Positions 10,482 through 31,821 of a stretch of 64,000 bases of DNA are shown one piece after another (positions within the stretch are counted from its first letter, which is position 1; each line of letters opens with the position of its first letter). The stretch is from an uncultured Gammaproteobacteria bacterium (lineage in GTDB: Bacteria; Pseudomonadota; Gammaproteobacteria; JACCXJ01), in assembly GCA_963764725.1 (NCBI GenBank), contig CAVXTM010000005.1:32001-96000 (forward strand). The letters are read 5' to 3'. A program made the translations under genes and the position numbers. The notes beneath the pieces are model-generated. The model was given only the letters and a program-made list of their open reading frames with translations, did not search any database and was not told where the DNA came from.

Positions 10482-10599
10482 GTTCTAAGCGTGGACCTCA
10501 GAGTGCTAGTGCTAAATTGCACATTATTTATACTGAGCAGTCAGCGGTGGACATTTTAGTCCCTTATCCATGAAATCTTGTGCAAAAAAGCAAAGAGTG

Positions 10600-12162
10600 T
10601 CATGCATGAGCGGTATTGAGAGCAGGCATGACCACATACTCTCGGATAGCGAGTGCGCTGCTGAGCACACGACGCCCGAATGTCGTGAGGTAGTACTTGT
10701 AGCGATGTCCAATCTTTTTGATGAGGCCATGGGTGCGCAAGCGTTTCAACCAGTAGGAGGCACGGCCGGTGGAGAGATCCCGGAGATGGGCTCGGAGATC
10801 GGAGGCGCGAAAGCCGCTGATGTTCCACTCCCCGCGGGCGAGGGTAATAAAAAGGCTATGATCTTCACCGAGGAAGAGATTGAAGCCCCGATAGGAGCGG
10901 TCTTTCTCTCGTACAGGTTTGGCCATTTTGTCGATGGCGTGCAGAGCTGCATTGGGGTTATCGATGCTGGCCATGAAGCTGAGATAGCGTTCATTGGCAG
11001 CATGCATCAGCTCTCGCAGATCGGGGAGGCTATAGATGTTTTTTCGCAGGGGTGCGAGTTTGAATTGCTTGCGCCCATTGCGTTGTTCCACCCAACGGTG
11101 GTGTTTGAAGAAGGAGACATCGTTGGCGGTGCATTCCACCCGAGCCATGAGACTGAATTTATCGTAGAGCTTGAGGCTTGCTGGTCCCATATGATGGCGG
11201 ATGCGTGTACCCTGAATGCGGGTGTGAAAATCGTTACCGGCCTCCCCGCTGAAGGCCGAGGTGAGTTTGCGTCCCAAGAAGGTGGCGACGTGTTCTGCCT
11301 TGAGGGCATGCACGGCGGTACGCACGATGGCTTGATAGAGGGGTTGGAAATCGGCTTGGCGGTGGAAGATGACATCGGTCGAGAAAGCCAGGGCCAGGGA
11401 GTGGCCCTGCTTGGCGCGCCGAGGATGCAACTCCACCTGCATGCAGCTCCAGTGATAACCAGCGCGAAACTGACCCAAGATAGGACAGAAGCTTTTCGCC
11501 CATCGGTCCAAACGCCGATGCAAGCCTTTGGGATCGAGGCTATCGGCAAGCGCCTGAGCCTGTTGGGGATCGCCGATGGACAAGAAGGCATTATCGGCGC
11601 GCTCAAAGGCGATCCCTGTCTTGGTCAGTCGTTGGGCTAACCAGTGATGGCCGTTCAAATAGACCTGCAGGCGAAACGGTGCCCAGGTGGGTACTCGGAC
11701 ATAACAGAGCCCGAAGATCTCATCGATGAAATAGAAGTAATAATGCAAACACTTGCCCGGGGTAGACTTCAAACGGGTCGTATGCTGAAGCTTGTCATGC
11801 CAGGGGCGATACGAAGGACAGGCCTCCATCGCCGAGAAGATATGCACCAGCCCCGGGTGCTCACCGCGCAAAGCCAAAATCGCTTTGATCCGTTCTTCTT
11901 TACGAAACGCCTTGTAATGACGGATGAATTCAATTTCCAACGAAGCCTCAGCGGCCAGCCGCTCGGCATGGGTCCGAAGCGCCTCGCGCAGCGGTTCCGC
12001 CCAGCGGGGGTAGTCAAACAGACGCATACCCCGGACACCCAAATATCGGGCCATGGCCTCGGCATGGGCGATCTCCGGAAGCGTGCCAGTGATCACGATG
12101 CGGTCAAAGCAACAAAGCACCGCGGCGATCTTCGCTTGATGGCGTTCAACAAAGGGATTCAT
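10600..12162 (-). CDS. Putative transposase of unclassified family with C-terminal winged HTH and a probable 15-aa in-frame insertion
   Basis: FDRIVITGTL, KCLHYYFYFID..FGLCYVRVPTW, KLYDK..ARVE; C-terminal wHTH (LKRLRTHGLIKK..YYLT..G). Confidence 0.65.
   Translation of the reverse strand: MNPFVERHQAKIAAVLCCFDRIVITGTLPEIAHAEAMARYLGVRGMRLFDYPRWAEPLREALRTHAERLAAEASLEIEFIRHYKAFRKEERIKAILALRGEHPGLVHIFSAMEACPSYRPWHDKLQHTTRLKSTPGKCLHYYFYFIDEIFGLCYVRVPTWAPFRLQVYLNGHHWLAQRLTKTGIAFERADNAFLSIGDPQQAQALADSLDPKGLHRRLDRWAKSFCPILGQFRAGYHWSCMQVELHPRRAKQGHSLALAFSTDVIFHRQADFQPLYQAIVRTAVHALKAEHVATFLGRKLTSAFSGEAGNDFHTRIQGTRIRHHMGPASLKLYDKFSLMARVECTANDVSFFKHHRWVEQRNGRKQFKLAPLRKNIYSLPDLRELMHAANERYLSFMASIDNPNAALHAIDKMAKPVREKDRSYRGFNLFLGEDHSLFITLARGEWNISGFRASDLRAHLRDLSTGRASYWLKRLRTHGLIKKIGHRYKYYLTTFGRRVLSSALAIREYVVMPALNTAHA
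11386..11430. repeat. 45-nt hairpin module, copy 1 (in-frame in transposase)
   Basis: CAGGGCCA-GGGAG-TGGCCCTG followed by CTTGGCGCGCCGAGGATGCA; near-identical to 31737-31779. Confidence 0.85.
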
Positions 12163-12260
12163 GGTGACAACTCATCTCAATCTTTATTGCCCATCCGCCA
12201 GAATAGTACATTCAACACCTTGGTTCCGGCTATGCCGGGTTAGGTATAGGGGGTATCGCT

Positions 12261-31644: not shown

Positions 31645-31821
31645 AAAAACCTGCTGCGCTCGAAATCTCGCGTTCCGGCGGTGCTCGGAATCCTCATGTA
31701 TGGCAATATACACTCCGGTTCCTGCGCTCCGGCGGAAAACCAGGGCCAGGGTGGCCCTGCTTGGCGCGTCGAGGATGCACCGCAACCTTCCTTCGCTCGC
31801 GACGGTTTTTTCACAAGCTCT
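31634..31821. mobile_element. MITE (188 bp) with perfect 18-bp terminal inverted repeats
   Basis: AGAGCTTGTGAAAAAACC (31634-31651) / GGTTTTTTCACAAGCTCT (31804-31821); internal TGTAT-GGCAAT-ATACA hairpin. Confidence 0.85.
31737..31779. repeat. Hairpin module, copy 2 (inside MITE)
   Basis: CCAGGGCCAGGGTGGCCCTGCTTGGCGCGTCGAGGATGCA; matches 11386-11430. Confidence 0.85.

Follow-up and report, generated by a model that had tools for sequence, protein, structure and literature searches.

A candidate Rep_trans-like tyrosine nickase in a multi-phylum family of insertion sequences with CTAA junctions

Rep_trans-type initiators are described, in the part of Carr et al. (PMC4797284) available to us, with three metal ligands (D46, D142 and E214) and with the motifs R140-x-D142-x-A144-x-D146, R189-x-Y191-x-K193 and R212-x-E214, which are located on beta strands. 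Five motifs (N', I, II, III and IV) are counted in the accessible portion of PMC5714925. According to the available text of PMC9371924, the site nicked by Rep_trans and MOBT enzymes is CT'AA, located in a GC-rich hairpin's loop, and this site is conserved in ICESt3, Tn916 and ICEBs1 elements; a 2026 paper (PMC13107129) names, in its accessible part, plasmids, filamentous phages, conjugative transposons and newly archaeal viruses as carriers of the fold. Here we report on an insertion sequence found in a 64-kb stretch of DNA from an uncultured gammaproteobacterium (contig CAVXTM010000005.1, positions 32,001 to 96,000), called the window in the following, and on its single gene, whose product may resemble these enzymes in its active site. 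To our knowledge tyrosine-nuclease transposons are known only with HUH enzymes (IS200/IS605, IS91, ISCR and Helitrons), and among the papers that full-text searches of the literature brought up, none describes a transposon whose enzyme is of the Rep_trans type.

The stretch between two TTAG words of the window (10556-10559 and 12240-12243, CTAA in gene orientation) is a mobile element, one copy of an unclassified single-gene insertion sequence, and we regard it as close to certain that its open reading frame is the transposase. As a whole, the data would be explained best by an insertion sequence that is moved by a Rep_trans-like tyrosine nickase through nicking and joining at CT|AA, a reading drawn from sequence comparison to which we give a probability of roughly 0.6. 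A first-pass annotation of the same DNA had already proposed a rolling-circle transposon with an enzyme of this type. Of this proposal the mobility of the element and the Rep_trans-like motifs, which turned out to be invariant, stood, and the junctions make a cut at CT|AA likely, whereas the enzyme neither matches the Rep_trans family PF02486 nor gives a significant full-length profile alignment.

Among described transposons, elements of the IS200/IS605 type (IS608 and ISDra2, with HUH enzymes of the Y1 class) possess neither terminal inverted repeats nor a target duplication, carry hairpins near both ends, use a short target word 5' of one end and form non-autonomous derivatives. The element described here is like them in lacking inverted repeats and duplication and in having hairpins near its ends, a short target word and non-autonomous derivatives, but its enzyme of 505 residues shows no HUH motif and no match to Y1_Tnp in Pfam, and CTAA would be used at both ends as well as in the target. 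IS91, ISCR and Helitrons (HUH enzymes of the Y2 class) are characterized by a tetranucleotide target, by the absence of inverted repeats and duplication and by an enzyme related to plasmid replication initiators, as far as the available part of PMC5714925 describes them. Our element resembles them in the tetranucleotide target and in the absence of repeats and duplication, and is unlike them in belonging to an unrelated nuclease family, no Y2 transposase domain with HUH being matched in Pfam or NCBIfam, and in that no read-through capture was seen.

Copies, empty sites and junctions of the element

To see where else the 1.69-kb unit occurs, a DNA search was run on all 19 contigs of the genome to which the window belongs. 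It was found at eight full-length places in addition to interrupted and truncated ones. Five full copies carry an insert of 45 nucleotides and are mutually 99.0–99.9% identical; the three copies without it (C10, C13 and C16) are 94–96.5% identical to the insert-bearing group and represent older copies. All 11 left ends in this genome begin with TTAGTCCC, and 10 of 11 right ends close with GCCGGGTTAG followed by G, the exception being the C10 copy, which has extra bases there. Boundaries of this kind are far beyond chance, and contigs from public runs break exactly at them (10555/10556 and 12245). The site of the window's copy is empty in two genomes of the same genus, G003 and G004, which read GGACAT-TTAG-GTATAGG with a single TTAG, and in G006 it reads TTCG instead of TTAG. 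The site of the C1 copy is empty in G003 as well (...TCCTCC-CTAG-GCAGC), and since a C stands at the corresponding place in this empty site, the C before CTAA is a target base. G003 also contains seven copies of a 136-bp derivative that retains about 50 nucleotides of one end and about 35 nucleotides of the other, and two more were detected in the unpublished genome G008, one of them at the exact window site. Where a full copy is present, such gene-less derivatives are short and occur several times, and the seven of G003 show that movement in trans happens. Further copies and empty sites with one TTAG, which the first-pass annotation had suggested looking for, were both found.

The ends are described in gene orientation (Table 1). 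In 48 of 58 loci from different phyla the 5' start reads C-C(T/C)AA-C-CCGGC-NNN-GCCGG-AACCAAA and is located 58–140 nucleotides ahead of the start codon. In 28 distinct versions of this end 94.3% of the cells of the hairpin are paired while its loop is variable; compensatory changes occur in two of the five stem pairs (CTGGC/GCCAG and GCGGC/GCCGC), and none of 500 shuffles reached the covariation score. Among 88 5' junctions matched by a regular expression, 72 read CCTAA and nine CCCAA, the AA at positions 4 and 5 being invariant in canonical ends. On the other side the element closes, 40–60 nucleotides past the stop codon, with ...GTAAGGGACTAA or a variant thereof. In the 38 loci with a recognisable 3' terminus its C and T never change, and the next bases are AA (29 loci), A followed by T or C (seven) or others (two).

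The variation at the two junctions is polar. All five loci with CCCAA at the 5' end and a readable 3' end retain the T at the 3' junction, all seven loci with ACTA(T/C) at the 3' end retain AA at the 5' junction, and in 11 insertions the two flanking tetranucleotides differ from each other, each time at the positions expected of hybrid junctions. This pattern therefore argues for a cut at CT|AA in both ends and in a target C-C-T|A-A, followed by exchange, and it disfavours a staggered duplication of 4 bp or a cut after CTAA, as neither of them predicts it. From these comparisons we take the two CTAA to be hybrid junctions and not a target duplication, and with a cut at CT|AA the mobile segment would span 10558-12241. 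The target word C-C-(T/C)-A-N is short and degenerate, and cores unlike that of the element itself are tolerated.

Terminal inverted repeats are absent from the element, its best end-to-end pair being subterminal with 20 nucleotides and 70% identity. Together with the long open reading frame between two TTAG and the hairpin at the right TTAG this is just what the first-pass annotation had described. The element has no match in Rfam, no promoter-like site was found in it and terminator-like sites occur only at chance level. A mini-stem of GGG and CCC around ACTAA, which might have formed at a hypothetical circle junction, was considered and dropped, as the GGG is not conserved.

Table 1. Features of the element in the window (positions of the 64-kb stretch; 5' and 3' refer to gene orientation).
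Feature	Position	Strand	Remarks
Insertion sequence, whole	10556..12243	-	1688 bp between two TTAG (CTAA in gene orientation); boundaries shared by all full copies in the genome; G003 and G004 have the site empty with one TTAG
Putative transposase gene	10600..12162	-	520 residues here, 505 family-wide; N-terminal, putatively catalytic part of about 420 residues and C-terminal winged helix
5' junction C-CT|AA	12240..12244	-	C-C-T would be target, AA element
GC hairpin CCGGC-TAT-GCCGG	12226..12238	-	5 bp; one base inside the 5' junction and the right TTAG
AACCAA box	12220..12225	-	directly 3' of the hairpin; invariant columns 20-25 of the end alignment; candidate binding or guide site
3' junction ACT|AA	10556..10560	-	ACT would be element, AA target
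Imperfect subterminal hairpin	10576..10596	-	about 20 nucleotides inside the 3' end; predicted by DNA folding; relatives show analogous hairpins of other sequence
Winged helix-turn-helix	10633..10887	-	about residues 426-510; weak Pfam, NCBIfam and PHROG matches and a MarR chain of the PDB
D20 codon (CFDRIV)	12103..12105	-	61/61; proposed third metal ligand, motif N'; putative Rep_trans correspondence
Q242-V-E244 / F-S-T-D263 strand	11374..11439	-	E244 61/61; proposed counterpart of Rep_trans R-x-D-x-A-x-D; split by the insert
K331-L-Y333-D-K335 and R341-V-E343	11134..11172	-	K331, Y333, R341 and E343 61/61; proposed nucleophilic Tyr, Lys, Arg and metal-binding Glu
45-nucleotide in-frame insert	11383..11430	.	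placement ambiguous by up to 3 nucleotides; absent from C10, C13 and C16

In the window the open reading frame is located between the genes of a VTT/DedA membrane protein and of an AMP-binding ligase. In two further copies of its genome (C11:177652-180498 and C18:264419-267500) the element is broken up by other insertions, which measure about 1.15 and 1.38 kb, and the insertion interrupting the C18 copy, the second of the two, is flanked by an 8-bp overlap of element sequence. An insert-free relative is also present in contigs of RNA libraries, which as contigs cannot show transcription. At L066:158-200 the start of a copy directly adjoins the ...GGTAAGGGACTAA terminus of another copy, which is diverged, in a head-to-tail arrangement, from which it follows that the 3' CTAA of the element can itself act as a target. 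At L076 the 3' flank consists of tandem repeats of GTACCTAA, a unit containing the target word CCTAA, and the flanks at L079 contain repeated TTCCCTA. All three copies on a Sedimentisphaerales chromosome (L082-L084) have as neighbours a variable hairpin repeat (CTCAAGCTGAC...GTCAGCTTGAG) as well as CTAATAC words, which gives the impression of insertion into a repeat family of the host.

The protein and its likeness to Rep_trans enzymes

Searches in Pfam, NCBIfam and PHROGs returned nothing for the protein except weak winged-helix matches at residues 456-509, and hence no known transposase family; the first-pass annotation had likewise recognised no DDE, HUH or Ser/Tyr recombinase signature. 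The C-terminal winged helix, which it had also named, is weakly detected, with an E-value of 0.03 for the window's protein; of 61 relatives 29 match, the best of them with 1.7e-6. Neither the protein nor the family profile matches any PDB sequence in the catalytic part, a MarR chain for the tail being the only match, and among the clusters of the protein Atlas residues 1-400 retrieve only those of the family itself and no named one.

Residue conservation was determined from 61 full-length relatives with 28–94% identity. Invariant positions are D20, R21, G104, E113, Y142, Y144, G151, P162, N170, N191, E244, K331, Y333, R341 and E343, and nearly invariant are Q242 (55 of 61), D263 and K335 (60 of 61 each), so that the KLYDK and RVE words picked out by the first-pass annotation turned out to be family-wide. 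Conserved residues recur at every second position in Q242-x-E244-x-(A/S)-x-D263, K331-x-Y333-x-K335 and R341-x-E343-x-T-x-N, which agrees with beta strands.

Six of these residues can be mapped colinearly onto the Rep_trans active site, with D20 corresponding to D46, E244 to D142, Y333 to Y191, K335 to K193, R341 to R212 and E343 to E214, and a bona fide Rep_trans group also has a glutamate at the D142 position (LELAMD). D20 lies in an N-terminal strand-like stretch (CFDRIV), and no significant alignment covers its pairing with D46. In motif I the residues Q-x-E-x-(A/S)-x-D are spaced as in Rep_trans without keeping the arginine, and they align to RvD-lAxD only in the core hhalign comparison. 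K-x-Y-x-K is aligned by hhalign to riYdK of motif III, where the downstream E is absent, and R341-x-E343, preceded by V or L and present in 61 of 61 relatives, aligns to the RxE of motif IV in the core comparison. The Rep_trans alignments used contained seven and then 16 sequences; a pT181-type Rep as query gave only relatives with at least 80% identity, which were useless for a broad profile. Restricted to the core, hhalign aligns all three motifs with a score of 17.0 (P 0.019), a score reached by three of 150 shuffles of the template and by one of 150 shuffles of the query, the reversed template scoring 10.3. The profile comparison with Rep_trans that the first-pass annotation had recommended therefore gave a suggestive result for the core and a non-significant one for the full length.

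In summary the protein is like Rep_trans and MOBT enzymes (pT181 RepC, pC221 RepD, RepSTK1, ICEBs1 NicK and ICESt3 RelSt3) in the colinear arrangement of invariant Asp/Glu, Tyr, Lys and Arg, and the probable cut CT|AA next to a GC-rich hairpin equals their nick site. It also shares with pT181-type Reps, as far as the available text on them goes, the order of a catalytic part first and a DNA-binding helix-turn-helix last. Unlike Rep_trans it has Q-x-E for R-x-D, its first acid and motif I are about 130 residues further apart, and the element itself, a chromosomal multi-copy insertion of 1.65 kb, is neither a replicon nor a conjugative element as the carriers of Rep_trans and MOBT are.

Proposed mechanism and alternative explanations

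Judged from its sequence, the protein most likely acts as a tyrosine nickase that depends on metal, has an active site like that of Rep_trans and reads the ends of the element with its C-terminal winged helix. D20, E244 and E343 would act as metal ligands and Y333 as nucleophile, accompanied by K331, K335 and R341. In the proposed pathway one strand would be cut at CT|AA at both ends, at the one beside the CCGGC/GCCGG hairpin and at the other after ...GGGACT, and the enzyme would also cut a target C-C-T|A-A. Rejoining of the strands would leave the element between two hybrid CTAA sites without any duplication of target bases, and the second strand would be made by host replication. Mobility, the exact ends, the target site, the conserved hairpin and residues and the asymmetric variation of the junctions are shown; the chemistry, the strand that is cut and a dimeric enzyme are what we infer for this pathway. 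By analogy the moving form may be a single-stranded circle excised in the manner of IS608 or a copy made by the rolling-circle mode of IS91, and the data would fit both. Of the mechanisms considered, the one put forward by the first-pass annotation is the best supported, with the cut site, the hairpin and the residues that never vary as its evidence.

Several results weigh against this reading. PF02486 was matched neither by the window's protein (E ≤ 1) nor by the copies of the genome (E ≤ 10), nor by the 61 relatives among the matches listed for them, the best 25 of 51 families. Full-length hhalign comparison with Rep_trans gave probabilities of 0.06–1.6% and was not significant, the core profile had no match at E ≤ 10 among PDB sequences, and the core-only hhalign alignment has a probability of 2.4% with regions that were picked with the hypothesis in mind. 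A relaxed colinear motif fits 14 of 16 Rep_trans sequences and, within the family, 60 of 61 members, and 30 of 2984 long open frames in the genome fit it too. Motif II (T/S-x-Y/E-x-G) is absent, the consensus upstream of the tyrosine being EG-x-RIKH-x-x-G, and the glutamate of Y-x-K-x-x-E is not evident. From Y333 to R341 there are eight residues compared to about 20 in Rep_trans, and the approximately 220 residues between D20 and E244 hold invariants of their own (E113, Y142, Y144, N170 and N191) that have no Rep_trans counterpart. CTAA is located one base beside the hairpin, compared to in the hairpin loop in the published Rep_trans and MOBT origins. With respect to movement, the filled site of the window has one extra T (A/T) before the left TTAG compared to the empty sites of relatives, which is unexplained; the orientation of copies relative to the local GC skew is unbiased (8–9 of 13 copies); and no reads from a circle junction or from precise excision were listed for four public runs, three of which are contigs that drop rare forms and so are silent on absence.

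The lack of a significant match to Rep_trans by any sequence method, the unlike spacing of the motifs and the invariants within residues 30-230 would also suit an insertion sequence with an enzyme of a separate fold or of some other known nuclease fold, the likeness to the Rep_trans motifs being convergent or due to chance, and nicking and joining at CTAA would still be possible with such an enzyme. We consider this unlikely, though worth keeping in mind, as there are six catalytic positions in colinear order, all invariant and recurring at every second residue, and as the probable cut site equals the Rep_trans nick site with a GC hairpin at the cut. The case for a shared ancestry with Rep_trans, as far as sequence goes, is nevertheless a weak one. 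IS5- and IS701-like DDE elements make a staggered cut and a 4-bp YTAR duplication, and the TTAG/CTAA on both sides of our element resembles theirs. A classical cut-and-paste DDE element that duplicates 4 bp by a staggered cut at TTAG would account for the TTAG on both sides, for the single one in empty sites and for the invariant D and E residues, but it is improbable in view of the missing inverted repeats, the absence of any DDE family match in Pfam and NCBIfam, the invariant K-x-Y-x-K and the flanking words, which differ in a polar, position-specific way.

Slightly less probable still is a site-specific recombination of the IS110 or IS607 kind, in which a circular junction and the target would cross over within a short core, CTAA. 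It would agree with the absence of inverted repeats, with the short conserved core at both junctions and with the high conservation of one end, but no DEDD or serine recombinase family is matched, and the target C-C-(T/C)-A-N is short and degenerate with differing cores being tolerated. Finally, the names given in databases and the C-terminal winged helix could mean that the open reading frame encodes a genuine regulator of the MarR/ArsR type, a passenger of an element moved by some other enzyme. MarR/ArsR regulators, to whose domain the winged helix matches weakly, are small, single-domain, single-copy and syntenic, whereas here the winged helix makes up less than 20% of the protein. About 420 of its 505 residues, which hold the invariant ones, form an N-terminal domain outside of it, and the gene is multi-copy and the sole gene between transposon ends that remain the same across phyla at 50% protein identity. 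The gene-less derivatives, moreover, are short and multi-copy in genomes with a full copy, and overall a regulator is highly improbable.

The insert-bearing copy of the window, the family and its significance

The 45-nucleotide insert that the first-pass annotation had removed by eye is real, exactly these nucleotides being absent from the three insert-free copies. It adds 15 residues, LHPRRAKQGHSLALA, between E244 and F260, and without it the protein reads MQVE-FSTD. The insert is a copy of a dispersed palindromic mini-repeat with 29 BLAST matches in the genome, and the lineage that bears it is the most recently multiplied one. An open frame is kept in four of five insert-bearing full copies and, among the insert-free ones, only in C10 (505 residues). 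As the insert splits the QxE/xxTD strand, the window's copy is, judged from its sequence, probably inactive and was probably moved in trans by an intact copy of 505 residues such as that of C10.

The mini-repeat is also present at positions 31735-31788 of the window. Within the genome (also at C10:130916-132103, C9:7275-8459, C10:136970-138151, C15:171582-172172 and C1:466287-466760) it is found in frame inside three unrelated tyrosine-nuclease transposase-like genes, each time close to a conserved motif: in the element described here, in an IS91-like HUH gene with three copies just ahead of RVRYYGFLS, and in RAYT/IS200-like genes just ahead of RGIWQRRFWEH. It is read in different frames and orientations and occurs in other repeats and between genes too. 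In the RNA-library contigs the summed depth is 855–951 over the mini-repeat compared to 144 beside it. About 40 bp to the left of the window's insertion site the unpublished genome G002 has a miniature inverted-repeat transposable element of about 200 bp (L105) with the ends AGCTTGTGAAAAAACC...GGTTTTTTCACAAGCT, flanked by CTGAG, which carries a copy of the 45-nucleotide repeat.

The family is large. Among 8000 candidates scored, 7815 are relatives at E ≤ 0.001, and 7422 representatives of 50%-identity clusters match. The 120 relatives listed have 500–513 residues, and the few named ones are called 'MarR family transcriptional regulator' or 'hypothetical protein', which agrees with the mis-annotation suspected in the first-pass annotation. 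A search with a single protein as query found relatives encoded at 518 loci of species genomes, which belong to Gammaproteobacteria, Nitrospirota, Planctomycetota, Acidobacteriota, Gemmatimonadota, Armatimonadota, Desulfobacterota and others, and in at least five of these species genomes they are multi-copy at 99–100% identity. A match is present in 15 of 41 related genomes searched, with a patchy distribution outside the family. Plasmids account for 15 matching records, including pOLGA1 of Paraburkholderia phytofirmans OLGA172, whose copy has 48.7% identity, the same ends and the annotation as ArsR family regulator; phage records gave no match. The ratio of nonsynonymous to synonymous substitution rates is 0.07–0.26 in eight pairs, and therefore the open reading frame encodes a selected protein.

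A second family member is located on the same contig outside the window (C5:128250-129880). Its open reading frame of 515 residues shows 51% identity, and its architecture is CCTAA-G-CCGGC-ACA-GCCGG-AACCAAAC, open reading frame, GTGACTAA. At L034:4093-5580 a distant member of 495 residues directly follows a typical one, and the resulting 3.1-kb unit is repeated in that genome. The distant member retains YDCIDRIV, QIEYSRN, LKLYDK and LRIE, the pattern of its subfamily being CxDRIV, QxEYSRN, LKxYDK and LRIE. An IS91-like read-through capture of flanks was considered for the 3.1-kb unit and rejected, as the unit consists of two adjacent family members in L034, L035 and L042.

Put together into one statement, a Rep_trans-like nickase of the TBP-type fold would drive a multi-phylum family of insertion sequences by single-strand nicking and joining at CT|AA, guided by a GC hairpin, and the active lineage in this genome would be parasitised, with its transposase split by a 45-nucleotide mini-repeat and its copies multiplied in trans; for this combination, read from sequence, we would claim slightly better than even odds. 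If true, transposition makes use of two unrelated folds of replication initiators, this being the second one recruited, and an evolutionary connection of insertion sequences with rolling-circle replicons and relaxases would be added. Thousands of annotations as MarR/ArsR or hypothetical proteins would be corrected, belonging to elements that break assemblies into contigs of about 1.7 kb. The enzyme would also be a compact nickase of single strands that recognises a specific and very short sequence, and as Paraburkholderia phytofirmans OLGA172 is a cultured host with a copy on its plasmid pOLGA1, this could be tested at the bench.

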